A stretch of DNA of 63,483 nt, filler included. It is 4 parts of 4 records of this genome, joined end to end, with 100 filler letters (N's around TTAATTAATTAA, not from the genome) between each part and the next. Parts side by side here need not be neighbours in the genome. Positions count along the whole stretch, not along the records: positions 1 to 24,091 come from DRR723986_5252; 3 more parts are not named here. One strand, 5' to 3'. Shown one piece after another: positions 618 to 23,982 of this stretch. The notes under the pieces were generated by a model. The model had not been told where the DNA came from. It saw only the letters and a list, made by a program, of their open reading frames with translations, and did not search any database. Position 1 is the first letter of the stretch, and each line of letters starts with the position of its first letter. The position numbers and the translations under genes are program-made.

Positions 618-1043
618 TTGAGGAACCTAAAATGGAAGACCAGCGCTATTCTGGCTGCACTCGGATTTATTTCAGGAACGGTATATTCTGAAATCGCCTA
701 CCCTCCTCTCCAGGTAATCCTCGCCTCGTCAGAAACGACGCTCCAACAAACAATCGAATACCCCCCAGGCCCGGCCAAGATCACTGCCGCGATCGCAACG
801 GTGCCCTCAGGTAGCAGCACGGGATGGCATAAACATAACGCACCCATGTTTGCTTGGATCATGGAGGGCGAGCTGACCGTTGATTATGGCGAGGAAGGTC
901 GTCGGATCTATCGAGCTGGAGACGGGCTCGTGGAGGCCTTCAAATCCTACCACAACGGCACGAATACAGGGCCATCAGAGGCAAGGATCATGGTAGTATT
1001 TGCCGGCGCCGAGGGGACCTCGAATACCGAACCGCTTCCTTGA
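618..1043 (+). CDS. exported cupin-domain protein
   Basis: TTG start after TAAGGA; N-terminal signal-like segment; cupin motifs GWHKH...EGEL and YHNG. Confidence 0.8.
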   Translation: MRNLKWKTSAILAALGFISGTVYSEIAYPPLQVILASSETTLQQTIEYPPGPAKITAAIATVPSGSSTGWHKHNAPMFAWIMEGELTVDYGEEGRRIYRAGDGLVEAFKSYHNGTNTGPSEARIMVVFAGAEGTSNTEPLP

Positions 1044-1472
1044 AGCGCAAATAGCAAGTGAACCAGTCTGTCTCAAAAACACAAACACGCCCTTACATGA
1101 TCAAGGATGATCGTACCGAACACTGAGGTTATGTCCCCAAGTTGTTGTCCGATAATGATCCTGGGTGCCTCCCTCACCAAGGCGGGATCTCCACAACGAC
1201 CGCAAAACCACCCATTCGGGTTAATTATTGTCAGGGCGAATCACGACTACTGTTGAGACAATGCCGGCATCATGAGGTTCCTATCCTCAGCACGTCCCCC
1301 ACCCAGTGACCGGTCACTTATCCCAGAATCCCCGGGAGAGTGGTTGGAGGTGCCGGCAGGTTCCCACCCCGAATGCGTCCATAGGAAAGGGTGATCATGG
1401 CTTCGGCCAACAGCTCACCTTCGGTCAAAAGGAAGGCGCAATAGAAAAATTCCGACCTGAAAGAATGTGCTT

Positions 1473-1829
1473 ATGCCAACCATATCAAAGAAATACCTTT
1501 TCCAACTCTCGGCTCTTGCCGTCTTAGCATCAACTTCTGCATGTCTGCTTTTCCCAGCAGAAGCAGATCGCGGTCGGCGCGGGCACGATGAAGACTCTCA
1601 TCACAGCAATCTGGGAAATGTGGAGATCATCAATCAGATCAAATCAGATCTCATCGGGCAGGGCTTTCGGATCCTCAAGTTGGAGTATTCTGATGGCATG
1701 ATTGAAGCCAAGGGCTATGAAGCCAATGGCCGGTGCGTTGAAGTTTATTTCAATCGAACCAGTGGCGAGGAAGTCTTTCGCGAACTTGAAGACAATTGTT
1801 CACGCTACACCGAAAAGCGTCTGCGCTAG
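1473..1829 (+). CDS. PepSY-domain exported protein with a short His/acidic linker
   Basis: signal peptide; GF(R)I.KLE.SDG.IEAKG...GR.VEVYF...SGE pattern of PepSY_2; GHDEDSHH linker. Confidence 0.7.
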   Translation: MPTISKKYLFQLSALAVLASTSACLLFPAEADRGRRGHDEDSHHSNLGNVEIINQIKSDLIGQGFRILKLEYSDGMIEAKGYEANGRCVEVYFNRTSGEEVFRELEDNCSRYTEKRLR

Positions 1830-1913
1830 CGGGCTTTTGAGAACGCAATACGGGGGGCCGGGCCAGGACAAAATCGATCCGGGTGCAGGCCTTTCAGCCC
1901 AGCACATGCCTAT

Positions 1914-3263
1914 TCATTGAATATCGGTCGGATCGACCCAGACACCTTTGCTCTCCAGGCTCCCAGTGCCCTTGTTGTAGCGGACAATCAGCGCTCCATT
2001 TGACCCAGTATGATCGTTAGGGGCGAAGGACATAGTATTTGAGATACCACCACGAAACTCGCGAACATCCTCCAATGCCTCAACAAACTTTCCACGATCT
2101 ATCTGACGTCCTGTCCGGATAAGCGCCTCCGTAAGAAGCGCCGCAGCAGTATAGGCGCGGGCTTCATCCAGAATATATTGCCCGCTTGACCCGGCGCGGG
2201 CTCTCAAGCGAGCAAAATTTGAGCGGGCTTGTGGTGCAACCGCGCTGAAGTCCACTGGCAATGCAACATGGACAGTGCCTTTGACGGCGTTGCGCTGGTC
2301 CGGGCTCATTGCCGAGAACACATCATGCGGCATCAAAATCGTCTGTTTGGAGGTGATCGTCTCAAGACATCCAGGATCAGATGCGATCACAACCTCATCC
2401 CTCCCCCCTTCGCAGGCATCTGGTGGGGCAAGACGGCCATACGCCCGTACGGCATACATCCGCAGAGCCGCCAGCTGCTCGTCTGGACCGGCAATAAGAC
2501 GAAAGCCTTTGGCATCCGGGCGAGACTCTCCCCACCATCCCAGGATGGGCACATCGTCGGTCAGGACGACCGAATGTCTGGAAGGACTGAGCATCACGGC
2601 AAACACCGAATGGGCACCATCACCGGTTTGCAACCAGTCCCATTCCAGCTTGCGACCATGTATGCCGCCGAGGGCATTTATATCCTCCGCAAACGCCTCA
2701 AGCAGGTGACGGATATCATTTGCATGTGACGTCTCAAGGTCATGGCCCAGGTACACACCAATCGTGATGCCGGCCTCTGCGACGCCTGGATCTGATGCAA
2801 CATCGATCTTGTCCAGAAACGCCCAGATATCAGCCAGGGCATCTTTACCGAGATCGAAACGGGGCATAGCCGAGTTAAGCTGATTACCGCCGGAATCGAT
2901 GCCGGTCTGAACGGCGCGGATAAAGAGCTCTTTTGTATATCCAGGCCGGACACGGCCTGCCTGCATCCGAACATCATAGGGCCGCGTCAGCGAGCTTCTC
3001 GTAAGATTTGTTGGCTGAACACCCCGTTCGCTCCGGCCTTGCCCACGTGTGCCATGACAGCTCGCACAGGGAAAGGAGCTGGCGGGAAGGTCAAAATCGG
3101 TCCCCTCGATGCGTGCCGTTGCCGCGTCCAGACCAGATCCTGACTGACCGAAATAGGCTGCCTTTCCTCGCACCTCGGAGCTCGTGAGTTGCGGCTCGGC
3201 CAGAACCACGCCGTGCCAAAAGGCACATGCACCGAGTAAGGCAAATCTAGCGAACCTGCTCAT
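1914..3263 (-). CDS. c-type cytochrome fused to a periplasmic (Peripla_BP_6-like) ligand-binding domain
   Basis: signal peptide; CASCH heme motif; SAMPRF axial Met; followed by TIGV...INALGGIHGRKLE, typical of LIV-type binding proteins. Confidence 0.8.
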   Translation of the reverse strand: MSRFARFALLGACAFWHGVVLAEPQLTSSEVRGKAAYFGQSGSGLDAATARIEGTDFDLPASSFPCASCHGTRGQGRSERGVQPTNLTRSSLTRPYDVRMQAGRVRPGYTKELFIRAVQTGIDSGGNQLNSAMPRFDLGKDALADIWAFLDKIDVASDPGVAEAGITIGVYLGHDLETSHANDIRHLLEAFAEDINALGGIHGRKLEWDWLQTGDGAHSVFAVMLSPSRHSVVLTDDVPILGWWGESRPDAKGFRLIAGPDEQLAALRMYAVRAYGRLAPPDACEGGRDEVVIASDPGCLETITSKQTILMPHDVFSAMSPDQRNAVKGTVHVALPVDFSAVAPQARSNFARLRARAGSSGQYILDEARAYTAAALLTEALIRTGRQIDRGKFVEALEDVREFRGGISNTMSFAPNDHTGSNGALIVRYNKGTGSLESKGVWVDPTDIQ

Positions 3264-3879
3264 CAGCAATATCAGAAATATGGCCCGCCAGGACTGCGTC
3301 GCTCAGGAAAGCTGGGAGTTTACGCCATCTCGATGTCTCAAGATTGCCGATCATAAGCGCGGTGAGGTGGTCCTCCTTGCCGAACACCTGCCCCAGCTTT
3401 GCATTGACCTTTTCCACGGACGCCTTGTCACCGGTGAGGAAGATCCAGCCATCGCCGGCGTTAAACTGCTCGCGATACTCGGCCAGCACGCCCGGTGTAT
3501 CTGTTTCAGGATCAACCGTTATGGAGACGAAGATGACATCCTTCCCCATGCGCGGCTTGATCCGCTCCTGCACCCTGGAAAGAGTGGAATTGATCAGTGG
3601 GCAAGCATCCTCACATGTTGTGAAAATGAAACTGATCACAACCGTTTTCCCGTCCAGAACATCCGAAAACAGCCGGACCTTCTTGCCTTCATGGGTCAAC
3701 AGAACCGTGTCAGTGAAATATGACTTCGCTTTCCTGCGCTCGAGGGAGCGATCGACGGTCCGAGCCTCACTTCCATGGCCTTGGTGTGCAGACGGATCAT
3801 GGCCTTCATGCTGGGCAGCTGCAGGTCCAGTGGAGCCCATGAGAAGCAGTGCAACCAGCATAGACAACTTGTTTCTCAT
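3247..3879 (-). CDS. SCO1/SenC-family copper chaperone
   Basis: FIFTTCEDACP (CxxxC), SITVDPETDTP, distal His (EDH); signal peptide and His-rich N-terminus; ATGA overlap with the upstream gene. Confidence 0.9.
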   Translation of the reverse strand: MRNKLSMLVALLLMGSTGPAAAQHEGHDPSAHQGHGSEARTVDRSLERRKAKSYFTDTVLLTHEGKKVRLFSDVLDGKTVVISFIFTTCEDACPLINSTLSRVQERIKPRMGKDVIFVSITVDPETDTPGVLAEYREQFNAGDGWIFLTGDKASVEKVNAKLGQVFGKEDHLTALMIGNLETSRWRKLPAFLSDAVLAGHISDIADEQVR

Positions 3880-4640
3880 TCCGATGCTCCCGATTTCGTC
3901 CCGTCTGTGGAACATGTTTCCTTCGCAATTTCTCTTCGCATCAGGTAATTGCGGACCTCCTGCTCTACACGGGCAGGATCCGGCAAACCGAAGAGCCTGA
4001 TGAACCGACCGGTTGATGCGTCCCCTATCAGGATCATTGGCGCATGATCTTCAGGATTGGTGGAATAAGCGTCCATTTCGTTCAGCGCTTTGTCCATCAC
4101 GGCTTTCTCGCCTGTCAGAAAGGTCCAGTCTGCACGATGGCGTTCAGAAAAGGCCTTCAGCCGCTCTGGCGTATCGGTGTTCGCATCGATACTCATCGAC
4201 ACAAATTGTAGTTCTGAGTCAGGCACATCTTTCAGACGCTCACGGGCTTCCACCAGCAGGCTGGTCGTGACTGGGCAGATCGTCTGGCAACTGGTAAAAA
4301 TAAAATCAACCACCATAACCTTGTCGCCGGCAACGTCGCCTTTGAGCTTCCTGGGGGCACCAGTTTGATCGCGCATCGGCTCCGAGCTCAGCCTGACCTC
4401 GGCTTCATCCTTGCGGGCCTCAAAACCTGCCGCCATCATCTCCTGGTGCGCGGCATGGTCTTCGTGCGATGCGGCTGGATGTGACGCATGGCCAGCATGC
4501 ATATCATGATCGGCAGGATTTGTTTCCGAACCGGCCTGACCACAGGAAGACAAGCAAAGAAACAGGCACGCCAGAACGCCGGCATTGATCGGGCGGAAGT
4601 GCAAGACCTGCCCGGAAACACAACTTAGCCTATTGATCAT
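3876..4640 (-). CDS. SCO1/SenC-family copper chaperone, probable lipoprotein
   Basis: FIFTSCQTICP, SMSIDANTDTP, EDH; lipobox-like LSSC; His/Met-rich linker DHDMHAGHASHPAASHEDHAAHQEMM. Confidence 0.9.
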   Translation of the reverse strand: MINRLSCVSGQVLHFRPINAGVLACLFLCLSSCGQAGSETNPADHDMHAGHASHPAASHEDHAAHQEMMAAGFEARKDEAEVRLSSEPMRDQTGAPRKLKGDVAGDKVMVVDFIFTSCQTICPVTTSLLVEARERLKDVPDSELQFVSMSIDANTDTPERLKAFSERHRADWTFLTGEKAVMDKALNEMDAYSTNPEDHAPMILIGDASTGRFIRLFGLPDPARVEQEVRNYLMRREIAKETCSTDGTKSGASE

Positions 4641-6549
4641 CCGAGTTCTGGCCTCCCTGCTGCGCAATCAGTGTAATGAATGGAAACGAAGAGAAGTCCA
4701 TTCCATGTGATTTAGCGGCGGGATACACATAGTAGGCTCCCGATCGCTCTGGTGTGAACGTTACGGAGAAACGCCCCTCCCCGGCTGCTTCGGCCAGGTG
4801 GATTTCCCGGTCCTGCCCGGGAGACCTGTATGTCAGAACCTCAACTGTCCCGACATCCAGCTCCTTGTCGAGGGTGCCTTCAAGGGAAAATTCGATCCGG
4901 ACCGGTTTGCCTGTCTCCACGATTTGTCCGGATTTCATATCGTAGGCAATGGAAATCGGGCCTTCATCCGTCACCAGTTCCGGGTCAGGCTCAACAGAAA
5001 AGCTGAAACATTGTATGATCTGAGGTGAATCCAGGGTCATGATCATCTGGAAATCGCCCGCTGCCGGCAATTTCAACAAAGCTTCATACTCGCCGGGCTG
5101 CACTTCCTTGATCGTCCGGTCAGCTACCATGGCCGACAAAGGGCGATGTCCGTAGTTCCGAAAACTGCCCATGGGTGCGTTCATGCCTTCCATGTAATAG
5201 TAGACCGTGGCATCGCCCGGGCTGACCGACAGAGTGGCCGCCTCAGTAACGGCAGGTGCAAAAAGGTCCGATGGCAAGAGCATGGGCGAATCCATTGGCG
5301 GCCGGTCACCCGCATCATACCCTACAACCACCGGGTCTGCGTCCTGTCCGATTGTATTGAGGCGGATCATCGAAACCCGAGTCGTCTCCAGGGCACGCAC
5401 AAAGGCATAATTCCGGGAGAAGGCTACCTGGAATGGTTTGCCATCGATCGCGATCTCATGGACTTCGGAATTGATCGCCGTATCGAAAACATGAACCTTG
5501 CTTTTTGCGGGATTGACAACAAAACCATACCGCCCGTCAGGGGTGATGCGCATTGGCCCCAGCCCCGGCTGAAGCTCTATGTTCGCCCTCACATCGAGAG
5601 CGTCCGGATCAATGACCGTGATATCACCTGAATCGCCGGAGGCGACATAGACTGACTGCGACAGGTCCGACCACGCCACCGAGAGCGGGGTCTGCCCAGT
5701 CTGAAGTGTCTTGATCGTTTCGAGCCTGGCGACGTCGACAATACTGACTGTGTCATCAAGCCGGTTGGTGACGAATGCAAGTCGGCTGTCATTCGTAAAC
5801 GCAAATTCATGATGTCCCCGGCCTGTCGCGAGATATCCGACTTTCTCCATCGTTTCGGTATCGAGGATTGCGACGCCGGATTCCTCTATCCCCTGCAGTC
5901 CTACCCAGGCGTATTTTCCGTCCGGCTGGACCGCGATCCTGTTCGGACGTTCACCGATTTTGACCGATCGCCCCAATTTGAAGGCTTCAAGGTCCACCTC
6001 GGCAACCGCGTCGATATAGGGCATGGCGACATATACACTCTTTTCATCAAGAGAGCGCGCCCAGTCCCCTGCCCGGGATGGTAGAATGATCTGGGTCAGG
6101 AGTTTCGTGATCCCCTTGATGCCTACGATCGGGTCGATGATCGCGATCGTCGGGTCCTCATTGAGCACAACGAGATAATAGGAGTTCAAATCAACCATGG
6201 GCCGGATGCCGACATAGCCGCTGAGATAGGTCCCGGCGGACTGACGGCAGGATTGTTCTGTCAGGGAATTGACGTCCTGGAGCGGATCGATCCAGCCAGC
6301 CGGATAGATCCCGGAGACCGGCTTGCCTGACCTTGAATCCGAGATCTTGAGCGTCAGCGCCGCAATCCCACCTTCCTTGAGCTCCGGCTCGAGCGGGTCC
6401 GTCGAGCGCGCCTCGAATTCGACGCGCAATCCCTCCCGCTCGACAGTTTGGGCCCCGGCATCATTTTGCGGGGCCCGGCTGCACGCCTGAGTTAAAGCGA
6501 GCGATGCGCACAACGCGATCGCAGGACCGACAATCGGGTTTCTATTCAT
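4630..6549 (-). CDS. YncE/cytochrome cd1-like beta-propeller lipoprotein with C-terminal Ig-like (YtkA/FixH-like) domain
   Basis: ATG at 6549 with GGAGA RBS; LTQAC lipobox; YVTN-type repeats (PDGKYAWV, FVTNRLDDTVSIVD, TPDGRYGFV). Confidence 0.8.
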   Translation of the reverse strand: MNRNPIVGPAIALCASLALTQACSRAPQNDAGAQTVEREGLRVEFEARSTDPLEPELKEGGIAALTLKISDSRSGKPVSGIYPAGWIDPLQDVNSLTEQSCRQSAGTYLSGYVGIRPMVDLNSYYLVVLNEDPTIAIIDPIVGIKGITKLLTQIILPSRAGDWARSLDEKSVYVAMPYIDAVAEVDLEAFKLGRSVKIGERPNRIAVQPDGKYAWVGLQGIEESGVAILDTETMEKVGYLATGRGHHEFAFTNDSRLAFVTNRLDDTVSIVDVARLETIKTLQTGQTPLSVAWSDLSQSVYVASGDSGDITVIDPDALDVRANIELQPGLGPMRITPDGRYGFVVNPAKSKVHVFDTAINSEVHEIAIDGKPFQVAFSRNYAFVRALETTRVSMIRLNTIGQDADPVVVGYDAGDRPPMDSPMLLPSDLFAPAVTEAATLSVSPGDATVYYYMEGMNAPMGSFRNYGHRPLSAMVADRTIKEVQPGEYEALLKLPAAGDFQMIMTLDSPQIIQCFSFSVEPDPELVTDEGPISIAYDMKSGQIVETGKPVRIEFSLEGTLDKELDVGTVEVLTYRSPGQDREIHLAEAAGEGRFSVTFTPERSGAYYVYPAAKSHGMDFSSFPFITLIAQQGGQNSDDQ

Positions 6550-6566
6550 CGGCGTCTCCGAAAAGA

Positions 6567-6601
6567 GGAGAGACAGCCCCTTTAAAAGGTGCCGTCTCTC
6601 C
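6567..6601 (-). terminator. intercistronic stem-loop (partial terminator or mRNA stabiliser) after the multicopper oxidase gene
   Basis: minus strand GGAGAGACGGCACCTT-TTA-AAGGGGCTGTCTCTCC followed by TCTTTT. Confidence 0.55.
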
Positions 6602-13160: not shown

Positions 13161-13527
13161 GGTGCGGTGCCTGTGTCATCTCATGATCCCATCGGATGGC
13201 CTCCGCCGTGTAGCGACGGTCGCCGAGCCCCTCGACGCTGACACGTATACGCATCAGCCCCTGCCCCAGCGGAGAGACTGTGCGGCGCCAGTCTATATGA
13301 CCGGAAGTTGTTACAGACAGTCCCGCCTCGTCTGCATTTTCCATTGTGGCCGTATCTATCAGGATCTGCATTTCCCTGACCGCCTCATGGGCCTCTGCCG
13401 CCAGGACCATTGCCCGCGCCTGATTGCCGAACCCTTTCAGCAAAACCACACCGGCAAGTCCCATGATCGTCAGCGCTACAAGGGTTTCGAGGATTGAGAA
13501 GCCGGCTTCATTTTCCGAAAATGTCAT
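13153..13527 (-). CDS. gspI: T2SS minor pseudopilin I
   Basis: GFSILETLVAL; ~124 aa; GGAGG RBS. Confidence 0.8.
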   Translation of the reverse strand: MTFSENEAGFSILETLVALTIMGLAGVVLLKGFGNQARAMVLAAEAHEAVREMQILIDTATMENADEAGLSVTTSGHIDWRRTVSPLGQGLMRIRVSVEGLGDRRYTAEAIRWDHEMTQAPHHE

Positions 13528-14024
13528 GACGAAACCTCCAGACGCTGGTATCGGCCAGTCAGCCAATCGACCTCTATTATTGTCTCTGCATACCCATCAA
13601 ATATCCGTATCTGTCCGCCCGAGCTGCGGCCATCGGGATAGAAGGCGATTCCGTCCGCACCGATCTGGCTGGATGACAGTACGCTGATTTTTTGGGATGA
13701 TGGCAAGCTCAGTTTTGCGCCCCATGGAGTGGAAAAGGAGCGTTCAGCCTCAGAGAATTTCAAGAGACTCGGACTACCTCGGCGCTGTGCATCAAGCCGG
13801 GTCGCCCGAATGAGGCTGACAATCTCCTGTGTCGTACGACGTCCCTCGATCCGGCTACTCCCATGGCCAGGCAGTTGCGCGACCGTTAAACTGGTCGCAA
13901 GGGCAAGGATCGCAAGCACGATCAGCAATTCAACAAGTGAAAAGCCCGCCTGCTGGTCATCCGGTAGGGTATCAATCACTTTCATGGTCCTATCGCCCGC
14001 TGGCTTGTCAGATCGCAAGGTCAT
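13524..14024 (-). CDS. gspH: T2SS minor pseudopilin H (start may be 13985)
   Basis: GFSLVELLIVL; IAFYPDGRSSGG...VDWLTG GspH motif. Confidence 0.85.
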   Translation of the reverse strand: MTLRSDKPAGDRTMKVIDTLPDDQQAGFSLVELLIVLAILALATSLTVAQLPGHGSSRIEGRRTTQEIVSLIRATRLDAQRRGSPSLLKFSEAERSFSTPWGAKLSLPSSQKISVLSSSQIGADGIAFYPDGRSSGGQIRIFDGYAETIIEVDWLTGRYQRLEVSS

Positions 14025-15216
14025 TGATGCTCATCACTGCGCTTAACAGGGTCAGCACGACAAAGCCTATGACCCCGCCCAGGCTGAGTGTCATGACGGG
14101 TGGAACAAGGGCGACGATTCTTTCCATCCTTTGCTGCGCGGAAGCCTCGAAGATTTCGGCGGCCTGAGCGAGTTGTGCAGGTGCATTGCCTGACCGTTCA
14201 GATACGGCCGCCATGTGAGCTGCCAGAGGGGGAAATGCGTGCGTTGCTTCCAGAGCATCGGACAGACGCCCACCCTGCCTGACCAGGTCGGTCGCTTCAT
14301 TGAGCTTTTCGCTGACAATAGCGGTCCCGACACCCGCGCTGGCAACATTCATGGCCGGAACAAGCGGCATGCCGCTGTCCAGAAGAGCTGAAAGCGAGGA
14401 CAGGAACCGGCTGGCTTCAACCTCTCGGATCGTCGGTCCGATGAGCGGAAGCTGAAAGATGAACTGGCTCAGCCTTTTCATCCCTGCCTGGCTTCGCAAC
14501 CAGACCATCGTCCCCAGGACGCCCATGAGTCCGGCTATGACAAACCCTGCCCCCCAATTGATGACAAAGTCCGATACGGCAACGAGATAGGCTGCGCTTT
14601 TCGGAACGTCCTGACCACTTGCCAGGAGGACAGGTTTCAATGTCGGCGTGACGACCAGCAGGATCAGGAGGATCGCCGCAATCGCGGTCACCGAAAGGAT
14701 CACAGGGTAGACAAGCGCGGATCGAACCTCGCTCCGAAGCTTGATGTCTTTCTCAAGATATTCAGTCAGACGCCTGAAGGCCGGGGCAAGGTGCCCAGAT
14801 GCCTCACCTGCCTGCACCAGGCCCATGACAAAGGGTGCTGGAGGATGAGAGACCTTTTTCAAAGCGTCCGCAAGCCTGTCTCCGGCAACTACAAATGTAC
14901 GCGCCTCCTCTGCAAGCTTGCGCGCAGGCCCATTTCTGATGTCATTGGCAACCATTCCAAGGGCTTCATCGAGTGGCAGGCCGCCATTCAGAAGCGCGCC
15001 AAGCGATCTGCAGAACTCAAGCATATCATTGGACGACATTATGTGATGCCGGGTTGCAACCTCCACAGCATGCGCATCAGCTTCTGTAACTTCAAAAGGC
15101 GAAAGCCCCTGTCGCAATAGCCAGGCGACCGCTTCTGCCTGGGACGCAGATTCGATCCGGTCCTGGAAGATCGAGCCATCCTTGCGATAAGCCGACACAT
15201 GAAATACAGCGTTCAT
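14008..15216 (-). CDS. gspF: T2SS inner-membrane platform protein F
   Basis: two T2SSF repeats (LL.GGLPLDEAL, AGEASG.L, SALVYP); ATGA coupling to the gspE stop. Confidence 0.9.
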   Translation of the reverse strand: MNAVFHVSAYRKDGSIFQDRIESASQAEAVAWLLRQGLSPFEVTEADAHAVEVATRHHIMSSNDMLEFCRSLGALLNGGLPLDEALGMVANDIRNGPARKLAEEARTFVVAGDRLADALKKVSHPPAPFVMGLVQAGEASGHLAPAFRRLTEYLEKDIKLRSEVRSALVYPVILSVTAIAAILLILLVVTPTLKPVLLASGQDVPKSAAYLVAVSDFVINWGAGFVIAGLMGVLGTMVWLRSQAGMKRLSQFIFQLPLIGPTIREVEASRFLSSLSALLDSGMPLVPAMNVASAGVGTAIVSEKLNEATDLVRQGGRLSDALEATHAFPPLAAHMAAVSERSGNAPAQLAQAAEIFEASAQQRMERIVALVPPVMTLSLGGVIGFVVLTLLSAVMSINDLAI

Positions 15217-16979
15217 AGCTCGCGCCCCCCAATACGTGCGATAACTTCCTCGACTGAGGTCTGGCCAAGCGCTGCAAGTCGCAAACCCTCGCTCAGCATC
15301 GGAACCATACCGTTCTGCAGGGCAACTGAGCGCAATTCGTCTTCGGATCGCGATGAAAGAATACAGGCACGTATGTCCTGATTGACTGACATGACTTCGG
15401 CCACGCTCTTGCGCCCTTTGTATCCTGTGCCCCTGCAGGCCGGGCATCCCCGCGCCTTGTGCCAGTGCGGTTTTGTGCCAGTGACGATGTGTGACAGGAT
15501 CCGGTCTTCAAGTTCTGGCTGGAGTGTTGCCGGCTCTGCACAGTCGCTGCAAAGAATGCGCACGAGACGCTGGGCAGAAATTGCATTGACCGTTGTTGCA
15601 AGAAGATAGTCGCTGACCCCCATCTCTATGAGTCTTGATATGGTCGAAGGCGCGGAATTGGCATGAACGGTCGAAAGCACCGTATGCCCTGTCAAAGAGG
15701 CTTCGACGGCGATCTGGGCAGATGCTGCATCCCTGATCTCCCCGATCATGAGCACATTCGGATCGTGTCTCAGGACGGAGCGGAGCGCCTGGGCAAATGT
15801 GAAACCAATTTCTGCGCGCACCGGGATCTGAGAGACCCCTTCAATCTCATACTCGACCGGATCCTCGACCGAAATGAACTTTCGCGTCGGAGACATGAGC
15901 GAGCGCAGGCAGGCGTAAAGCGTCGTTGTTTTTCCGCTCCCTGTTGGCCCCGTCACAAGCGTGATACCGTGCGGTCGGTTGATCGCATCGTGGATCGGCG
16001 CCAACGCACTCTGCGACAAGCCAAGCTGGGAGAGATCCAGATGGCCTGCGGTCTGATCCAGCACCCGCAGGACAATTGTCTCGCCATGGAGGCTCGGCAT
16101 GGTCGCAACACGCAAGTCGATGTCACGCCCGTGAATATTGGTTCTGATACGCCCATCCTGGGCAAGACGGCGCTCGGCAATATTCAGCTTCGCCAGCACT
16201 TTGATCCGAGAAATGGCCGCTTCCGCAGCGCCATCCAGTCGGGCATCCACTTCAGACAGATTGCCGTCGATCCGGAATCGGACACGCAATCCCTCGCGGC
16301 CGCTTTCGATATGAATATCGGATGCCCCCAACTCAACGGCCTGCTTGAACAGCTGCTCGACCCACTTCACAACCGGCGCACCACGTGCAAGGTCCATGAG
16401 GCGTTCAAGGTCCCCTACCTGATCCAGCCCGGACGAACGGACTTCAACGGCGGAGGGGGCTTCGGCATGTCCCAGCCATTCCATGATGTCTCGTGCCAGG
16501 GCGACTGCACGGACCACTTTCCTGCCAGTGCGATATGCAACTGCATCAAGCGTTTCAGCGTCGCTCGGATTCGCCATCACAAGGATGAGTTCATCTTCCC
16601 GGCCAGTAAGCGGCAGGACGTGCTTGTCCTTAAGGTATCCAAGCTTCAATCCTTCTGGCAGGTGCTGATCGTCCGGAAAGTCTGCCGCTTGTAAATACGG
16701 GATATCATAGAGTTCCGACCACGCCCTGGCGATGCATTCATCGGAGCAGAGACCCAGTGTGACAAGCACGCTGGCAAGGGGCTCTCCTGTCTGCGATGCG
16801 ACAGCCTTTGCCCGCTCTATTCTGGCTGGCGGCACAGACCCCTGCCTGGTCAATACATCTTGAAGCGACTGGTCAGGGTCCCGCACGTCTGATCCACCCT
16901 CAGCTGGCACCATGAGCGCTTTCGGAACTTCGACATCTAATTCTTGTACGGATGTAATATTCAACACGGAAAAACCCAA
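15213..16979 (-). CDS. gspE: T2SS ATPase E (start may be GTG 16967)
   Basis: Walker A GPTGSGKTT, EDPVE, LRHDPNVLMIGEIRD, LTGH..LSTVH, tetracysteine CSDC..CPAC. Confidence 0.95.
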   Translation of the reverse strand: MGFSVLNITSVQELDVEVPKALMVPAEGGSDVRDPDQSLQDVLTRQGSVPPARIERAKAVASQTGEPLASVLVTLGLCSDECIARAWSELYDIPYLQAADFPDDQHLPEGLKLGYLKDKHVLPLTGREDELILVMANPSDAETLDAVAYRTGRKVVRAVALARDIMEWLGHAEAPSAVEVRSSGLDQVGDLERLMDLARGAPVVKWVEQLFKQAVELGASDIHIESGREGLRVRFRIDGNLSEVDARLDGAAEAAISRIKVLAKLNIAERRLAQDGRIRTNIHGRDIDLRVATMPSLHGETIVLRVLDQTAGHLDLSQLGLSQSALAPIHDAINRPHGITLVTGPTGSGKTTTLYACLRSLMSPTRKFISVEDPVEYEIEGVSQIPVRAEIGFTFAQALRSVLRHDPNVLMIGEIRDAASAQIAVEASLTGHTVLSTVHANSAPSTISRLIEMGVSDYLLATTVNAISAQRLVRILCSDCAEPATLQPELEDRILSHIVTGTKPHWHKARGCPACRGTGYKGRKSVAEVMSVNQDIRACILSSRSEDELRSVALQNGMVPMLSEGLRLAALGQTSVEEVIARIGGREL

Positions 16980-17250: not shown

Positions 17251-18348
17251 TTGATGTCCAGCGATTTTACGTCTCAGAATCTGAACTTCCCGCATATGCG
17301 CCAGTCTGTTGGACGAGAATTGGGACGCTGGTGGACATGGTGGAAAGGCCAGCTTTCCGAACTCGTACCGCCACAGGTGCAGGCCCTCTACTCGTCTCAG
17401 TCCGAGCCGGCCTATATCGTTTTCGAAAACGACAATTACGGGCTCGCCCCTTGCAAGAATGGCCATATCGGAAATTCGACGCAGCGATTGCCGGAAGTGA
17501 TCACCGGCGAAAGAATTGTTCTTTTACTGCCTTACAAAAGCGTCCTTTTGAGAGACCGGGTCCTGCCGGTGGCGTCCATGCCTCAATATCAGGACATCAT
17601 GAACTTGCAGGTGCCCGTCGAAACACCCTTCGACCTCAGTGAAGTCTGCGCGGATTCTCGCATTATCGATGTTGATTTCGATACCGGGTCTTTATGGGTT
17701 CAACAGGCGTTGCTGCGTCAGGACCTGGCAAGTCGCCATTACCGAAGCCTGAAAGATCGCAATGTCGGATTGTCCGGAATTGATATCCTGGACGAGGACA
17801 ACCGACCTATGGGGTTGAACCTCCTGCCGAAAGGATGGCGCACCCCTGAGCATCGCCCGAGATCCCGGTTGAACTTCTACATGCTTCTTGGTGTAATTGC
17901 TTTGTTAGCTACCCTCGTCGTCACAGTTTCCCTGAAGCTGGACCGCAAAGCTGAGATTCTTGGATCAAAACTGACATATGCGCGCGATCAGGCACAAACT
18001 GCCCTATCGATCCAGCAGGACCTGAACAGGCAGGCCGGAGCGTTGGAAACTGCCCACTTGCTCACCAATCATCCGTCGAGATTTCTGCCGATTTATCAGG
18101 CACTGGCGACAACCCTTCCGGAAGACACATATCTCGAAGCCATGATCTATAAAGATGGCCGGGTTTCCCTGATCGGCTTGTCTGGAACCAGCGAGACACT
18201 CTCAGAGCAAATTGAGCCGATTCCGGGAGTGGAATCCGCGCGCCTCCTGTCGACCATAGCAGCGAACGACGCAGGAGGACGCGATCGTTTTCGAATGGAG
18301 CTCACACTGGTCGCCGACCGAGTCCTCTCAGAGGAGGCCAACAGGTGA
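17251..18348 (+). CDS. gspL: T2SS protein L (PilN-like C-terminus)
   Basis: WWTWW..QL.ELVP start, LP....L.R...LP, ETPF, LNLLP, one TM, LPEDTYL. Confidence 0.85.
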   Translation: MMSSDFTSQNLNFPHMRQSVGRELGRWWTWWKGQLSELVPPQVQALYSSQSEPAYIVFENDNYGLAPCKNGHIGNSTQRLPEVITGERIVLLLPYKSVLLRDRVLPVASMPQYQDIMNLQVPVETPFDLSEVCADSRIIDVDFDTGSLWVQQALLRQDLASRHYRSLKDRNVGLSGIDILDEDNRPMGLNLLPKGWRTPEHRPRSRLNFYMLLGVIALLATLVVTVSLKLDRKAEILGSKLTYARDQAQTALSIQQDLNRQAGALETAHLLTNHPSRFLPIYQALATTLPEDTYLEAMIYKDGRVSLIGLSGTSETLSEQIEPIPGVESARLLSTIAANDAGGRDRFRMELTLVADRVLSEEANR

Positions 18349-18932
18349 ACCCGTACACACTGACCCGCTCCCAGCAAAAATTCCTGGCCGTCGTCTTGCT
18401 TGTCGTCGTCCTCTTTGCGGCGGTGACACTCATTTGTCTTCCGCTTCAGTCCCAGTTCGCAACCAAGACGCGTCGCTTGAGCGACATGCGTGAACAAATC
18501 ATGCATTGGGAATCCATCATCGCCTCCGAAGCTGACCTCCGGCATGCCCAGAGAGCGTTCCAAAGCGCACCAGGCAATGAGCAGATGTTCATACCGGCAT
18601 CATCCAACTCTCAAGCGGCAGCAAGTGTGCAGGCCTATGTCAGAAGAATATTCCAGCAAGCTGACAGTGATATCAAAAGCCTGGAACCCCTGCCTGTTCA
18701 GCAACTTGGCACAAGCCAGCGCGTTGCAGTGCGTGTCGTCGCAATGGTTCAACAAGAGCAGCTCGACGAGATCCTGGAGCAGTTTTGGTACCACGAACCC
18801 GCATTGGCTCTCGAAACCTTTCAGATCAAGGCAGGTGGAACTGGTCGACGCATAAAAACGGATAACTTCCAGACAAGCCTGCAGATTGACTTCACTGTCT
18901 TTGCACTGATGGCCCCATCGGATGACGCGTAA
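18345..18932 (+). CDS. gspM: T2SS protein M
   Basis: N-terminal TM plus coiled segment, AAASVQAYVR, GTGA overlap with gspL. Confidence 0.8.
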   Translation: MNPYTLTRSQQKFLAVVLLVVVLFAAVTLICLPLQSQFATKTRRLSDMREQIMHWESIIASEADLRHAQRAFQSAPGNEQMFIPASSNSQAAASVQAYVRRIFQQADSDIKSLEPLPVQQLGTSQRVAVRVVAMVQQEQLDEILEQFWYHEPALALETFQIKAGGTGRRIKTDNFQTSLQIDFTVFALMAPSDDA

Positions 18933-19420
18933 TGAGTTCCCGCACACTCCCCCCCATTTTGCACACAAGCCTGCTTGGTACCTGCGTACTGGTCCTGCTC
19001 TTCGCCAATGTCAGGAATCTGGCACCGGCAGGCGACCATGTTTCATGGACGCCACAGGATGTCGTCCCATCCCTGAAGGCCCCTGCCCTCACAATTCCGC
19101 ACCCCGACAGTCGTGCTGAATGGGTGGGGATCCAAGCACCTCTTTTTTCGCCGGACCGCAAACCGCACACGGCGGGCATCACAGAAGAAGCGTCGATGGA
19201 GACCCCAGCCGGCACAGAACTCAAACTCATGGCCTCGGTTTCGATTGCAGGTGCGCGCAAGGTCGCAATCCTCTCAGGAGATGAGGCTCAAATGATATGG
19301 CTTAAGCCGGGGGACACGCTGTCAGGCTGGCTGCTGGAGAGCGCGACAGATACTCAGGCTGTACTCGAAAAATCGGGAAACAGAGAGACCCTAAGCCTTT
19401 ATCCGACAGTCGACGAATAG
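18932..19420 (+). CDS. T2SS GspC/GspN-like protein
   Basis: one TM; PLFSPDRKP motif; W.KPGDTLSGW.L HR-like domain; lies between gspM and gspD. Confidence 0.65.
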   Translation: MSSRTLPPILHTSLLGTCVLVLLFANVRNLAPAGDHVSWTPQDVVPSLKAPALTIPHPDSRAEWVGIQAPLFSPDRKPHTAGITEEASMETPAGTELKLMASVSIAGARKVAILSGDEAQMIWLKPGDTLSGWLLESATDTQAVLEKSGNRETLSLYPTVDE

Positions 19421-19460: not shown

Positions 19461-21659
19461 ATGACACTCCCGCGCCCTGTAAAGCTTATCACACCGGCCC
19501 TTCCCGCGCTCGCTCTGGCAGCTTGCGCGACCCCAAACCATCAACCGCAACTGGCCGCCACTTACCAGTCCGGTATCGCCCAGAACAGTCAGCAGGCGAG
19601 CCGAATTCAGGATACAAATTCAGAGAATCTGACCCAGGAGCCGGCAGAAGGCCTCCCTTCCTCCTCTACGGAAGCGCGACCGTTTTCATTTATACAGTAT
19701 GGCGACCAGGTTACTGAGCAAACGGTCAAAGAGATCGCCCAGGATGCTGAAGAAAACGATATTATCATTAACCTCTCGAATGTGCCGATTGGCGATGCCA
19801 TTCAACATGTTCTCGGCGATATTCTCGGAGAGAACTATGTCCTTGAGGCGAGCCTCGCTGGCGATCTCAGCATTCACACCACCAGTCCAGTGAGCCGCTC
19901 CGGCGCCATTCGCCTCCTGACGAGCGCGCTCAACAGCAAGAATGTAACCCTCGTGCGCGACCAGGGCTTTTACCGCATCGTGCAGACAACACGTAACGAT
20001 CCAAGTACGCAAAAAGCCGGTCAGGTGACCAGGTTCATCTCCACCAAATTTGTCAGCGCCGCATCGCTTGAACCCATCATGGTCGGGATCCATGACTCTG
20101 CCCTGGATGTCTCGATTGATACTGGCCGGAATATGATCATCCTGAAAGGCCAGGAGCGCCTCGTTGCAGATGCTGAAGCGATAATCGATGTTTTCGATGT
20201 CAATTGGATGCGAGGGAAATCAATTGCGGCAAATCCTGTCCGCTTCACTTCTCCGACGCGCATCGTCGAAGAACTCGAAACCCTTTTCGGTTCGGGCCAG
20301 GGCGGCCCTGTTGGTGAATTTGTCCGGTTCATTCCTCTCGATCGGCTGAATACAGTTATTACCATCACTCAGCAGCGCGCTTATATTGATGAGGCTCAGG
20401 CGTGGATTGAGCGGCTCGACCGTTCCGACGGACAGGCAGGCCAAAGGCTTTATGTCCTTCCCGTCGAAAACCGGCCTGCCAGCGAAATCGGAAATATACT
20501 TCGCGATATCATGACGGGCGAAGCTGGCAACACGTCTGAGGCCAGGGCCGGGCTGCATCCGTCGGATACGCCGGTTCTAAGCGGAGACGATATGCCGGCA
20601 GCGGGCCGCCTGACCGACATCAGCGCCTCTAATGGGGGCCTTTCTGGCGGCCAGCCGGCTCCTCGTATCTTTGCGGACGAAGCAAACAATACGCTGGTCG
20701 CATTTGCATCGCCTGAGCAATTTGCTCTGTTGGAACGCGCTGTTTCTCAATTGGACAGAGTGCCGAACCAGGTATTCCTGGAAGTTACCATCGCCGAAAT
20801 TACGCTTTCCGACGATCTGGCATTTGGACTCACCTGGTTTTTCCAGAGCGGCGAGTTCGATATGGGCTTTTCGGACGTTTCCAATGGCGCTGTTGCTTCG
20901 CAGTTCCCAGGCTTTTCCCTTTTGTTTTCTGGCCAGGATGGACGAGCGGCCCTGTCGGCGGTAGCGGGGGCTACAGATGTGAAAATTCTGTCAGCCCCCT
21001 CACTGATGGTGCTCGACAACAGGACCGCAACGCTTCAGGTCGGTGACCAGGTTCCGATCATCACACAGTCTGCTGTCAGCATGACTAATCCTGACGCACC
21101 CATCGTGAATTCAGTCTCCCTGCGAGACACGGGCATCATTCTGAATGTCACACCGCGGGTAAATGATGGCGGCCTGGTGTTGCTGGATATTGATCAGGAA
21201 GTCAGTGACGTTGTTTCCACCCAGTCATCAGGCATCGATTCACCCACAATTCAACAAAGGCGCATTACGACATCTGTCGCCGTCAAGAATGGCTCCAGCA
21301 TCGCGCTTGCCGGACTGATGCGGGAGCGCCTTAGCGATACCGAAACCAAAGTCCCATTCCTTGGAGATCTTCCGCTGCTGGGATCTGCATTCCGGACGCA
21401 GAAGAATTCCGCTCAGCGGACAGAACTTCTCGTTTTGATAACACCCCGCGTTGTGGGCGGACAGGACGAAACAAGTTTCGTAACACAGGACCTTATTCGG
21501 CGAATGCAGAGCCTGGAACGCACTTACTTCCCTGCACAAAGAATTGAAGCGTCTGGAGTCGGCTCCACAAAAGGTGAACTCATCGATGAGGAGGTGCTTT
21601 TCTCGGATGATGTGGTTGCCGAAACGCACGCACAAGCGGAAATCACTACCGGCTCATGA
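19461..21659 (+). CDS. gspD: T2SS secretin D with lipoprotein signal
   Basis: LALAAC lipobox; QVFLEVTIAEI, ILSAPSLMVLDN..ATLQVG, KVPFLGDLPLLG.AF, RTELLVLITPRVV. Confidence 0.95.
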   Translation: MTLPRPVKLITPALPALALAACATPNHQPQLAATYQSGIAQNSQQASRIQDTNSENLTQEPAEGLPSSSTEARPFSFIQYGDQVTEQTVKEIAQDAEENDIIINLSNVPIGDAIQHVLGDILGENYVLEASLAGDLSIHTTSPVSRSGAIRLLTSALNSKNVTLVRDQGFYRIVQTTRNDPSTQKAGQVTRFISTKFVSAASLEPIMVGIHDSALDVSIDTGRNMIILKGQERLVADAEAIIDVFDVNWMRGKSIAANPVRFTSPTRIVEELETLFGSGQGGPVGEFVRFIPLDRLNTVITITQQRAYIDEAQAWIERLDRSDGQAGQRLYVLPVENRPASEIGNILRDIMTGEAGNTSEARAGLHPSDTPVLSGDDMPAAGRLTDISASNGGLSGGQPAPRIFADEANNTLVAFASPEQFALLERAVSQLDRVPNQVFLEVTIAEITLSDDLAFGLTWFFQSGEFDMGFSDVSNGAVASQFPGFSLLFSGQDGRAALSAVAGATDVKILSAPSLMVLDNRTATLQVGDQVPIITQSAVSMTNPDAPIVNSVSLRDTGIILNVTPRVNDGGLVLLDIDQEVSDVVSTQSSGIDSPTIQQRRITTSVAVKNGSSIALAGLMRERLSDTETKVPFLGDLPLLGSAFRTQKNSAQRTELLVLITPRVVGGQDETSFVTQDLIRRMQSLERTYFPAQRIEASGVGSTKGELIDEEVLFSDDVVAETHAQAEITTGS

Positions 21660-22591
21660 AAGCAACACCGCCCTTTCGAGAAGACCAACCTCATTCCGAG
21701 CGCGGCAGCGCGCTTCTGATGGTCGTGTGGGGCATTGGCGCCATGGCTGCCCTTGGCGCAATTATGGCTGCTGATACCCATATGGATATTCAGGAAGCCA
21801 GCGCAGCCAAGCAAATCTTTCTTGCGCGCACTCTGGCCGAAAGCGGGTTGCGTCTCGGTGCACGCAATTGGGAAGCGGGAATCGGCTCAAACTTGCTCCC
21901 TACCCCGCTTCTCTGCGAGACAGACGCGGGGATTCTCCGCATTGAGGTCAGGCCGACAGAAGCGCTGATCAACCTCAATCTCGCATCGGAAGGTCTACTG
22001 GCAGGCTTGTTCGAGGCGCTTGGCACTGACCAGGAAAAAGCCCGCGCACTTTCAGAAGCGGTCATAGATTATCGGGATCCGGATAATCAGACCCGGTCTG
22101 GCCATGACGAAATCGAATTGTACAAGTCTACCGGATTGGCAGGTCCGGCTAATCGCGCGTTCCTCCGCCCATCGGAATTGTCATCTGTTGCAGGTATGCC
22201 TGCGGAATTGGCCATCAGAGCTTTGCCGCATGTCACGACATTCAGCACGACACCAGCAGTCAGTCTGAATTCAGCAGACCCCATCGTCAGAAATGCTGTC
22301 CGGCAATCGCGAGGTCAGACACCATCACAGCCTCTAATCACAGGCTATGAAGACTTCCAAACGATTGGATCTGGTCGCGTTCAGACTGGTGGAAAGCCGA
22401 TCCAGGGCGTCAGCATATTCGTCAGATCGGTCGCCACAACACGCTCAGGTTATACGGCCGTTGCAGAGGCGACAATCGAACGGGACAAATTGTCAGGCCG
22501 GTACTCAAGACCCCTGACTTTTCGCTGGTCTACACTGTCCCCTGACGAAAGCCCCCCTCAAACAGGCACGTCAAATGTGAACTGCTATTAG
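21656..22591 (+). CDS. gspK: T2SS minor pseudopilin K
   Basis: RGSALLMVVW; INLN; AVIDYRDPD; NRAF...SEL..V.GM. Confidence 0.85.
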   Translation: MKATPPFREDQPHSERGSALLMVVWGIGAMAALGAIMAADTHMDIQEASAAKQIFLARTLAESGLRLGARNWEAGIGSNLLPTPLLCETDAGILRIEVRPTEALINLNLASEGLLAGLFEALGTDQEKARALSEAVIDYRDPDNQTRSGHDEIELYKSTGLAGPANRAFLRPSELSSVAGMPAELAIRALPHVTTFSTTPAVSLNSADPIVRNAVRQSRGQTPSQPLITGYEDFQTIGSGRVQTGGKPIQGVSIFVRSVATTRSGYTAVAEATIERDKLSGRYSRPLTFRWSTLSPDESPPQTGTSNVNCY

Positions 22592-22598
22592 TGGCCAA

Positions 22599-23033
22599 TC
22601 AGGAGCCTATATCCGAATCCTCGCCCTCTCCGCCCGGGGCGTTGTCGCGACCATAAGACAGTACAGTATAGCCTCGTGTTCCAGAGCCACCAAATATATA
22701 GGTATACGGATGCCCCCAGGGATCAACAGGGACCGCCTCCTCATCCAGATAGGGACCCGCCCAGCCCGGCACTCCGGGGATGGGCTCTACAAGCGCCTTG
22801 AGCCCCTCTTCACTGGTGGGGTACCTGCCGACGTCGAGAAGATACATGTCGAGCGCAGCTTTGATATTGTCGATCTGAACAGACGCGGTCTGGCTTTTCG
22901 CCCGACTCAGATACCCGATCACGCGCGGTCCAACGACGCCGGCAATCAATGCGAGAATGACCAATGCGATCAACAATTCCATCAGGCTGAAGCCAGACTG
23001 ATTTGTTACTTTGCTCTGTTCCGACGTAATCAT
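22599..23033 (-). CDS. gspG: T2SS major pseudopilin G
   Basis: GFSLMELLI; ALDMY.LDVGRYPT.EEGL.ALV; W.GPYL; DPWG.PY.Y; SYGRD..PGGEGED.DI; AGGAG RBS. Confidence 0.95.
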   Translation of the reverse strand: MITSEQSKVTNQSGFSLMELLIALVILALIAGVVGPRVIGYLSRAKSQTASVQIDNIKAALDMYLLDVGRYPTSEEGLKALVEPIPGVPGWAGPYLDEEAVPVDPWGHPYTYIFGGSGTRGYTVLSYGRDNAPGGEGEDSDIGS

Positions 23034-23184
23034 GGCAACTCCTAGCCTCATACGTTCTGTGTCCGACAAGAAAATTATCATTCGATTACAAACGCTAATT
23101 TATTTCGATGGCCCCAGAAATTGATCAGGTAATTCTCTTCTTGTCAGGTCCAAAACTGGTCACGGCGCGCGACTGGTTACCGCT

Positions 23185-23982
23185 TTGAAAGACGCATGGA
23201 ATTCTCTGCTCCTACTGAACAAGCAGGCACCTATGACATCACTCGACTGGTTCTGTATCCTGGCCGGCTTTGCGGTTGGTTCTTTCATTGCGGCTGCTTT
23301 TGACAGGCAAGAACGCCCACTCCATATTCTGACAGGACCATCCGCCTGCGACAGCTGTGGGACAAGGCTCGCCTGGTATTCACTCGTCCCTGTCATTTCC
23401 TTTTTCAGTCAGGCAGGAAAGTGCCGATCCTGCCAGACAGCTATACCGCTCAGATATCCTGTAACAGAATTGGCGGGAGGGTTGATCGCCCTGCTTTCTG
23501 TCAGTCTGGCACCAGAGCAGCTGGTAGTTGTATCGTGCCTTTTCGGATGGCTACTCCTCGCACTGTGCCTCCACGACTGGATGACATACCGGCTGCCAGA
23601 TTACCTGACACTTTGCCTTGCCGGATTAGGCCTCATTGTCATCTGGCGGTATTTCCCATTGTCCTGGTCTGGACACTTTTCAGGAGGTGCTGTTGCCTAC
23701 GCAACATTCCGATTTATCGAAGCGGCTTATCTTAAACTGAAGGGACGCCACGGCCTGGGACGCGGAGACACAAAACTGTTCGGCGCTGTTGGTATCTGGA
23801 TTGGTGTGTCCGGACTGGCCCCTGCCCTGCTGATCGCGTCTACAGGGGCCTTGTGTCATGTGCTGGTTGCCACGTTCAGAAGCCGAACCCGGCTTAAGGC
23901 AACTCACAAGATTGCCTTCGGCCCCTGGATTGCGGCGGGCGGCTTCCTGACTTGGTTGTGGCAAATCGCGACTGGAGCCTGA
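23185..23982 (+). CDS. gspO: prepilin peptidase (A24)
   Basis: S.CDSC, G.CRSC, YP.TEL, HD....LPD, GLG.GD.KL, IAFGPW. Confidence 0.9.
   Translation: MKDAWNSLLLLNKQAPMTSLDWFCILAGFAVGSFIAAAFDRQERPLHILTGPSACDSCGTRLAWYSLVPVISFFSQAGKCRSCQTAIPLRYPVTELAGGLIALLSVSLAPEQLVVVSCLFGWLLLALCLHDWMTYRLPDYLTLCLAGLGLIVIWRYFPLSWSGHFSGGAVAYATFRFIEAAYLKLKGRHGLGRGDTKLFGAVGIWIGVSGLAPALLIASTGALCHVLVATFRSRTRLKATHKIAFGPWIAAGGFLTWLWQIATGA

Follow-up and report, generated by a model that had tools for sequence, protein, structure and literature searches.

The window analyzed here, 63,483 nucleotides in length, joins four unrelated metagenomic contigs, and the first of these (contig 1, positions 1-24091; 56% GC) carries a gene for a giant MnxG-type multicopper oxidase, four accessory genes and a twelve-gene type II secretion system (T2SS). 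On balance, we consider it fairly probable that this locus represents, in a lineage of the Hyphomonadaceae, a Pseudomonas-type mnxG operon with an accessory T2SS linked to it, and that its oxidase would be exported by the Sec pathway, loaded with copper, passed on by the T2SS and put to use in Mn(II) oxidation at the cell surface. What is directly established is that the genes are intact, that the copper sites are complete, that gene order and linkage are conserved and that, in relatives, this T2SS is present in addition to a housekeeping one. The module consists of the following elements.

1914..3263 (-): monoheme cytochrome c fused to a periplasmic binding-protein domain; PF13458, CxxCH at residue 68
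3247..3879 (-): SCO1/SenC copper chaperone 2; PF02630, CxxxC and downstream His
3876..4640 (-): SCO1/SenC copper chaperone 1; PF02630, lipobox, CxxxC and downstream His
4630..6549 (-): YVTN/YncE-type beta-propeller accessory protein, a probable lipoprotein here; PF21783, TIGR02276
6617..12262 (-): mnxG-type six-domain multicopper oxidase; 1881 residues from ATG, intact frame, NF041487
12263..12575 (no strand): AT-rich spacer between gspJ and mnxG; 313 bp, 42% GC
12576..13160 (-): gspJ, minor pseudopilin; PF07963, NF006453
13153..13566 (-): gspI, minor pseudopilin; NF047828 XpsI (weak), N-methylation motif
13524..14024 (-): gspH, minor pseudopilin; NF047827 XpsH, E 1e-18
14008..15216 (-): gspF, inner-membrane platform; PF00482, probable start at 15216, about 402 residues (from start context and the length of the L144 orthologue)
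15213..16979 (-): gspE, ATPase; PF00437, PF05157 (N-terminal MshEN), Walker A, tetracysteine motif
17251..18348 (+): gspL; PF05137 PilN-like, position kept in relatives
18345..18932 (+): gspM; PF10741, NF040576 above cut-off
18932..19420 (+): XpsN-like protein; NF041470, E 1.7e-8, far under cut-off
19461..21659 (+): gspD, secretin; TIGR02517 above cut-off, lipobox (lipoprotein signal)
21656..22591 (+): gspK, minor pseudopilin; PF21687
22599..23081 (-): gspG, major pseudopilin; TIGR01710 above cut-off
23185..23982 (+): gspO, prepilin peptidase; PF06750, PF01478, probable start at 23233

The giant oxidase of about 1881 residues that the original prediction described is intact and full-length. 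It covers NCBIfam model NF041487 (MnxG) from position 1 to 1894 of 1894 with 2293 bits, and it has the MnxG-type layout of about 1900 residues, six cupredoxin domains, five copper-binding regions and complete type 1 (T1) and trinuclear copper ligands. His466, 469, 471, 520, 522, 526, 910, 912, 1008 and 1010 and Cys521 are invariant in all 92 aligned proteins, the ligand set being complete in the Priestia outgroup as well, and Met531 is invariant in 46 aligned proteins. Assigning roles by general multicopper-oxidase knowledge (one T1 and one trinuclear site), we take H466, C521, H526 and M531 to be the T1 ligands and His 469, 471, 520, 522, 910, 912, 1008 and 1010 to be the trinuclear ones. A fifth His-rich region lies at 1246-1255, and in the alignment, by hand count, H526 falls opposite the residue mutated in the Bacillus H340A structure. 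The strongest sequence match in the PDB is 9bxa (Bacillus MnxG; E 5.6e-84). A predicted structure of residues 22-1060 (predicted template-modeling score 0.81; mean predicted local distance difference test score 71) likewise retrieves 9bxa first in a fold search (E 5e-24), then factor V and ceruloplasmin; small laccases share the fold. The N terminus, read by eye, has a charged start, a hydrophobic stretch and an A-x-A site without a twin arginine, and a Sec-type signal peptide of about 21 residues is predicted, leaving a mature enzyme with a computed mass of about 202 kDa and pI of 4.9.

Ten named Pseudomonas/Azotobacter-group proteins of the MnxG type share 49-51% identity with the oxidase. 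In phylogenetic trees, where the Pseudomonas branch consists of such named proteins with the GB-1 sequence itself left out, it falls in a separate Hyphomonadaceae clade (support 1.0), and the Pseudomonas MnxG group sits with Aromatoleum and other gamma- and betaproteobacterial sequences. The assignment to MnxG holds at the level of the wider family that both share, but not at the level of the Pseudomonas clade.

Downstream of the oxidase and in the same direction follow the YncE/YVTN propeller, two SCO1/SenC proteins and the CxxCH cytochrome c/periplasmic-binding protein; domain matches and motifs bear out this run, copper-loading genes included, as it had been predicted. In the propeller, H291, E292, M497, E498 and M500 are at least 97% conserved among 93 homologues, and these His, Met and Glu residues suggest copper binding. 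The lipobox-like Cys behind its description as a lipoprotein is present here, but it is restricted to the subclade that holds the contig 1 protein, and we rejected lipoprotein status as a family trait. The cytochrome fusion has no sequence match in the PDB.

The T2SS genes begin 313 bp from the oxidase gene, at the roughly 310 bp originally given and in the order claimed: E, F, H, I, J on the minus strand, L, M, N(C), D, K on the plus strand, G on the minus and O on the plus strand. The core (D, E, F, G, H, I, J, K, L, M, C/N and O) is complete, with frames and motifs intact; C/N and L were called from weak matches together with conserved position, and the XpsN-like protein is presumably the GspC equivalent. 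Stop and start codons overlap within gspEFHIJ and from mnxG through the cytochrome gene, which suggests two transcription units, one for each run, with the AT-rich spacer between them.

A scan of species-level genomes for the oxidase yielded 546 candidate stretches, of which 528 were confirmed, and the best 72 of these loci were analyzed. Among them, the 20 closest (69-74% identity) carry Hyphomonas, Henriciella or Hyphomonadaceae titles, apart from two titled Acidobacteria (L004 and L015, 71-72%), which nest among Hyphomonas sequences in the oxidase tree and are probably mislabeled or mis-binned rather than evidence of transfer. All 20 of these titled loci come from metagenome-assembled genomes. 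A metagenome locus, L144, is closer still at 86% and branches with contig 1 inside the Hyphomonadaceae clade (support 1.0). The host is thus probably a member of the Hyphomonadaceae, a placement drawn from these closest relatives, contig 1 having no housekeeping gene, and it agrees with the alphaproteobacterial affinity first proposed. Within the family, 22 of 262 genomes carry mnxG (about 8% of species-level genomes). No further MnxG carrier turned up among 301 genomes sampled from the order to which genome G263 belongs.

Linkage of oxidase and T2SS is a constant feature of this clade. In all 20 Hyphomonadaceae-clade loci, T2SS genes sit immediately upstream in the contig 1 order over whatever length the contigs cover, and all 12 loci with at least 5 kb of downstream sequence have the full accessory operon. 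G002 and G003 retain the order of the outer genes K, G and O, and gspG is relocated in G005. Five of five related carrier genomes also have a separate housekeeping gspDEFG cluster whose products are 29-45% identical to the contig 1 proteins. Judged from these genomes, the contig 1 T2SS is presumably a second, accessory system, in line with the dedicated T2SS that had been predicted. Outside the family, 33 of the 37 loci with enough flank have the accessory operon.

The closest functional parallel is Pseudomonas putida GB-1. Its operon (PputGB1_2447 onward) consists of mnxG, a YVTN propeller, two SCO proteins, a binding protein with a cytochrome c domain, and SurA (PMC11409713, Table 4; articles, with the exception of PMC5122683, are cited here from the portions available), and contig 1 reproduces the first five of these six genes in order. 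Both systems have a giant, Sec-exported multicopper oxidase of about 1900 residues with five copper-binding regions, and both have a second, specialized T2SS nearby, which in GB-1 is Xcm (xcmX, PputGB1_2462, 15 genes off); xcmX lies 14-15 locus numbers from mnxG in all five pseudomonads tabulated in PMC13689576. In GB-1, deletion of mnxG and mcoA abolishes Mn oxidation, and in T2SS mutants lysates oxidize Mn whereas cells do not (PMC13689576). The systems differ in that the oxidases share only about 50% identity; contig 1 lacks a SurA gene, a sigma-54 motif and MnxS1/S2/R genes; its T2SS is upstream, with gspEFHIJ co-oriented with mnxG, and is Xps-like and far in sequence from Xcm-like proteins; and the host is alphaproteobacterial.

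By this analogy, four steps may be envisaged. First, MnxG would cross the inner membrane by Sec, because its signal peptide lacks a twin-arginine motif, and would fold in the periplasm. Second, the two SCO proteins, perhaps with the His/Met-bearing propeller, would load the T1 and trinuclear copper sites. Third, the adjacent Xps-like T2SS would bring the 200-kDa enzyme, already folded, to the cell surface. Fourth, Mn(II) would be oxidized there to Mn(III/IV) oxide in one-electron steps, with O2 as the acceptor; the cytochrome c-binding-protein fusion would be a probable redox partner or sensor. Export of MnxG by the linked T2SS seems very likely on these grounds, and Mn(II) as the main substrate, which we infer from GB-1, seems likely.

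The exporter is less close to that of GB-1 than is the operon. Family matches are to the Xanthomonas-type XpsH, XpsI and XpsN models, and in maximum-likelihood trees of GspE and GspD the island T2SS forms a clade apart from housekeeping systems and from the mnxG-adjacent systems of beta- and gammaproteobacteria. GspE of contig 1 is 35% identical to P0220, a protein named as P. putida and 72% identical to mnxG-linked gammaproteobacterial GspE, which serves as a presumed Xcm GspE in place of GB-1's own Xcm sequences; across Xcm-like proteins the range is 35-43%. By sequence, then, the contig 1 T2SS resembles Xps and stands far from Xcm-like proteins, and the parallel to an Xcm-type system probably does not extend to T2SS type. 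We rejected the stronger statement that statistics exclude an Xcm type: a joint clade of island and Xcm-like sequences survives approximately unbiased (AU) tests (p 0.17 for GspE and 0.28 for GspD), which also speaks against any firm claim that the T2SS was recruited independently. A constraint placing all 18 mnxG-linked GspD in one group was rejected (p 5e-7), this group having been chosen post hoc from an earlier tree.

The same T2SS lineage also occurs without mnxG. GspD of contig 1 matches 51 of the 262 family genomes at E 1e-60 and 35 at 1e-140, the latter threshold having been chosen after inspection of the match list. Nineteen of these 35 carry mnxG, 14 form a sister group without it, and two are of the island type in small, fragmentary assemblies. 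The cassette has a gene layout identical to the contig 1 type in the five sister-group genomes examined. A small subunit of a split copper oxidase unrelated to MnxG is found in 16 of 262 family genomes, including 13 of the 14 in the sister group, and it adjoins the cassette in G226, G240 and G253. In G226 (L130:1185-16431), the cassette stands beside two small copper-oxidase-domain proteins, an SCO protein and a 2387-residue, MopA-like heme peroxidase with RTX repeats; one of the two small proteins has a twin-arginine-type start. In several sister genomes the flanking genes are unrelated, for example a GMC oxidoreductase. Partial MopA-like matches, mostly in very long frames, come from 11 genomes, all of them in the sister group, and each of six family genomes (G228, G231, G240, G241, G253 and G256) has two to four genes for giant MopA-like peroxidases. 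The heme peroxidase family PF03098 matches 39 of the 262 genomes overall and none of the 22 mnxG carriers. Taken together, MnxG or the split copper oxidase is present in 32 of the 35 genomes with this secretin versus 4 of the 227 without it; the genomes are related and many are incomplete, and the counts express an association rather than independent events.

Several observations weigh against an Mn-oxidizing, T2SS-exported MnxG. First, the oxidase score of 2293 bits is below the NF041487 equivalog cut-off of 3100, making the protein MnxG-like rather than a strict equivalog. Second, outside the family, only 15 of 52 loci have a T2SS gene in the flanking sequence retrieved; the predicted conservation of linkage holds within the Hyphomonadaceae but is not universal. 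Third, the best 72 of 528 loci include close homologues from records of Geobacteraceae, Syntrophobacteraceae, Anaeromyxobacter and Nitrosomonas, groups that are not known as aerobic Mn oxidizers. Fourth, contig 1 has no SurA-like sixth operon gene among its annotated open reading frames; PepSY and cupin genes on the other strand come next. Fifth, a sigma-54 pattern, sought with a simple regular expression, is absent from all 23 mnxG-upstream spacers, unlike in GB-1, and mnxG is therefore probably regulated differently from its GB-1 counterpart. Finally, for strain U9-1i, an Mn-oxidizing isolate linked to the Hyphomonadaceae, a MopA-like peroxidase has been named, not MnxG (PMC5122683).

Some of these points would fit an exported enzyme with a different substrate, that is, a surface ferroxidase, a cuprous oxidase or a laccase-like enzyme acting on humic or phenolic compounds, with Mn oxidation incidental or absent. 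The sub-equivalog score, the separate clade about 50% from Pseudomonas MnxG, a fold common to ceruloplasmin and small laccases, and homologues across many metabolically unlike taxa are all compatible with this idea, and multicopper oxidases accept a wide range of substrates (PMC10367259). The characterized members of the giant family that we found, the Bacillus and Pseudomonas MnxG proteins, nevertheless oxidize Mn (PMC13689576), the entire accessory operon is common to GB-1, and MopA-like peroxidases, which are another type of Mn oxidase, are found together with the sister T2SS cassette. We regard a different substrate as unlikely.

It is also conceivable, but improbable, that the system conducts extracellular electron transfer, with electrons passing between the oxidase and metals or metal oxides and, through the cytochrome c fusion, the respiratory chain in an energy-yielding process similar to that proposed for OmpB- and MofA-type proteins. 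Retention of the cytochrome gene with the propeller and SCO genes in 45 of the 49 loci with enough flank could be read in this way. Geobacter OmpB, which is T2SS-secreted and has SCO and cytochrome neighbors, is needed to reduce Fe(III) oxide (PMC5566968), and P. putida cytochrome c maturation mutants fail at Mn oxidation (PMC13689576). OmpB and Leptothrix MofA do resemble the contig 1 oxidase as surface multicopper proteins with such neighbors, OmpB leaving the cell through an atypical T2SS. However, they belong to another multicopper subfamily, as judged by family match rather than direct comparison, and OmpB serves metal reduction. Moreover, an intact trinuclear O2-reducing site lets the enzyme pass electrons to O2 unaided, contig 1 has a single heme motif and no multiheme or porin gene, and a location outside the cell makes it hard to see how energy would be conserved (PMC13689576).

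That the T2SS carries other cargo, for example the secreted protein P0121 described below, with MnxG staying in the periplasm or using the housekeeping T2SS, is very improbable. In its favor, the 14 sister-cassette genomes have the layout without mnxG, several of them with unrelated neighbors such as the GMC oxidoreductase; mnxG has no T2SS gene near it in 37 of the 52 loci outside the family; and 200 kDa is large for T2SS cargo. Against it, 13 of those 14 genomes have the split copper oxidase instead, next to the cassette in the three named above; oxidase and T2SS are linked in all 20 family loci; and GB-1 genetics makes export of the oxidizing activity T2SS-dependent (PMC13689576).

Two further conserved neighbors are seen in relatives. 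The cytochrome gene is followed by csgF, and then by csgG and curlin-repeat genes, in 10 of the 12 family loci whose flanks are long enough:

L002:20501-25531: curli locus after the mnxG operon, with equivalents in L003-L005, L010-L013, L015 and L019

Strong CsgG matches (E <1e-50, counted by hand) are found in 17 of 22 mnxG carriers versus 24 of 240 other family genomes, and curli could possibly act as an amyloid scaffold for Mn oxide. Contig 1 has no curli genes; there, as in L144, a PepSY gene occupies the position. At the other end, beyond gspO, relatives encode a secreted protein of about 390 residues that belongs to no Pfam family and has weak DUF5666-like structural neighbors:

L090:8284-9474: P0121

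Of the 262 genomes, 26 have a member of the P0121 family; mnxG is carried by 18 of these, and every one of the 26 has either mnxG or this secretin. In four of five Nitrosomonas-titled genome loci (L038, L062, L065 and L068), the gene directly upstream of mnxG encodes a homologue. P0121 is missing from contig 1, where its place is taken by an IS3 end and the contig break. It is a candidate accessory subunit or second cargo.

A broader scheme can be tentatively proposed from these patterns, though we think it rather unlikely to hold in full. This T2SS lineage would be a dedicated exporter of surface metal oxidases whose cargo has been exchanged (MnxG versus split copper oxidase plus MopA-like peroxidases), the mnxG operon would have recruited different T2SS types, and in Hyphomonas and Henriciella the unit, curli and the secreted protein would together form a biomineralization kit. 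Co-occurrence is the only basis for both the cargo swap and the link to curli. If the scheme were true, Hyphomonas and Henriciella biofilm bacteria would be overlooked Mn oxidizers. The swap between MnxG and the split copper oxidase on one T2SS lineage would also offer a natural comparison for how a T2SS chooses very large folded substrates.

How new is the locus? An mnxG operon with a nearby T2SS is an already published Pseudomonas arrangement, and the module type is not new; what is new here is the Hyphomonadaceae host and the Xps-like exporter. The suggestion of an undescribed module survives for the family, since we found no account of mnxG in Hyphomonas or Caulobacterales, in a search that left subscription journals mostly outside and with supplements that may list some. 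The available portions of PMC7593233, PMC10367259, PMC6839870, PMC3056050, PMC13488337, PMC5566968, PMC11356483 and PMC13439051 describe no locus of the contig 1 type. PMC10367259 reports mnxG in six metagenome-assembled genomes, and the term "Hyphomonadaceae" is absent from its supplement, in which 2 of 32 mnxG places were examined. PMC7593233 describes a Hyphomonadaceae taxon enriched in an Mn-oxide biofilm and 99% similar to an isolated Mn oxidizer. In the class as a whole, distant mnxG operons are also present on plasmids of two cultured alphaproteobacteria:

NZ_CP030127.1, about 968000-992000: Indioceanicola profundi (deep-sea) plasmid locus L219, an unannotated mnxG operon amid T2SS genes, oxidase 41% identical

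The second, on Sphingobium xenophagum plasmid pSH1 (L220:11860-20945), is a divergent mnxG-like operon (30%) with SCO and cytochrome genes beside integrases, and no T2SS gene is annotated across 29 kb of that region.

Other known systems are less similar. The Mnx complex of Bacillus sp. PL-12 (MnxG with MnxE3F3; 9bxa) shares the six-domain, ceruloplasmin-like fold and copper ligands, but the contig 1 oxidase is about 650 residues longer, no small mnxE/mnxF-like genes are seen alongside it, and export is from a Gram-negative cell rather than to the spore exosporium. MopA (Aurantimonas, Erythrobacter) and MoxA (Pedomicrobium) have in common with it a proposed extracellular Mn(II) oxidation in alphaproteobacteria, but these enzymes are unrelated to, or much smaller than, the contig 1 oxidase. 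If Mn(II) is indeed oxidized, MnxG-type biomineralization extends to the Hyphomonadaceae, members of a class whose Mn oxidation has been attributed to MopA and MoxA. As a compact 22-kb unit of oxidase, copper-loading and exporter genes, the locus is suited to two questions posed in a 2026 review (PMC13689576): whether accessory proteins replace Bacillus MnxE/F for Gram-negative MnxG, and whether the linked T2SS is specialized for the oxidase.

The setting of the locus bears on how far it can be interpreted. The linkers between contigs (24092-24191, 33341-33440 and 57978-58077) each consist of N44, a 12-base spacer and N44, and features are not to be interpreted across them. Contig 2 is Rhodobacteraceae-like (79% identity to a Ruegeria protein) and differs in composition from contig 1 (tetranucleotide r 0.17); it therefore has no bearing on the contig 1 host, and contigs 2-4 were rejected as a source of host taxonomy. 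Contig 1 itself ends 109 bp past gspO, where relatives hold a further conserved gene, and it breaks at 24091 because of an IS3-family repeat at its end. That element and two genes at the opposite end lie outside the conserved module:

618..1043 (+): secreted cupin; PF07883
1467..1829 (+): secreted PepSY-domain protein, a lineage-specific neighbor; PF13670
24057..24091 (+): IS3-family terminal inverted repeat, a 97% match over 33 nt to sequence directly upstream of a plasmid IS3 transposase

The cupin has a homologue in 1 of 72 genome loci and in two of five carrier genomes, and the PepSY protein in 0 of 72, with one in the same place in the closest metagenome locus, L144; their inclusion in the module was not upheld. 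The IS3-type terminal repeat is matched by 311 plasmid records. An IS3-type end at one flank and the patchy family distribution (22 of 262 genomes) are indicators of mobility, from which we infer that the locus may be a genomic island. A repeat search of contig 1 gave short, chance-like repeats only, with no att-like pair and no long flanking repeats, and an Rfam search of contig 1 returned 0 families. Sequencing run X1 contains a strain 90-99% similar over 25 of 30 bins; its habitat is unrecorded, and it was not used as evidence.

With regard to regulation, the gspJ-mnxG spacer is the probable mnxG promoter region. A promoter and terminator scan of it stayed at shuffle level (2 promoter-like matches versus 0.7 expected; 1 terminator-like versus 0.8), and both promoter-like matches fall on the opposite strand. 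In carrier genome G047 (L143:2461-6891), the stretch that separates the mnxG operon from gspG encodes an H-NOX heme sensor, a PAS histidine kinase and response regulators, hinting at control by O2 or NO. Residues 41-89 of the contig 1 GspE contain a degenerate MshEN c-di-GMP-binding motif (19.5 bits versus a cut-off of 38), and control of export by c-di-GMP is possible but doubtful. Finally, one gammaproteobacterial genome locus, L037, has two tandem mnxG-like genes, at 3538-9351 and 9767-15670.

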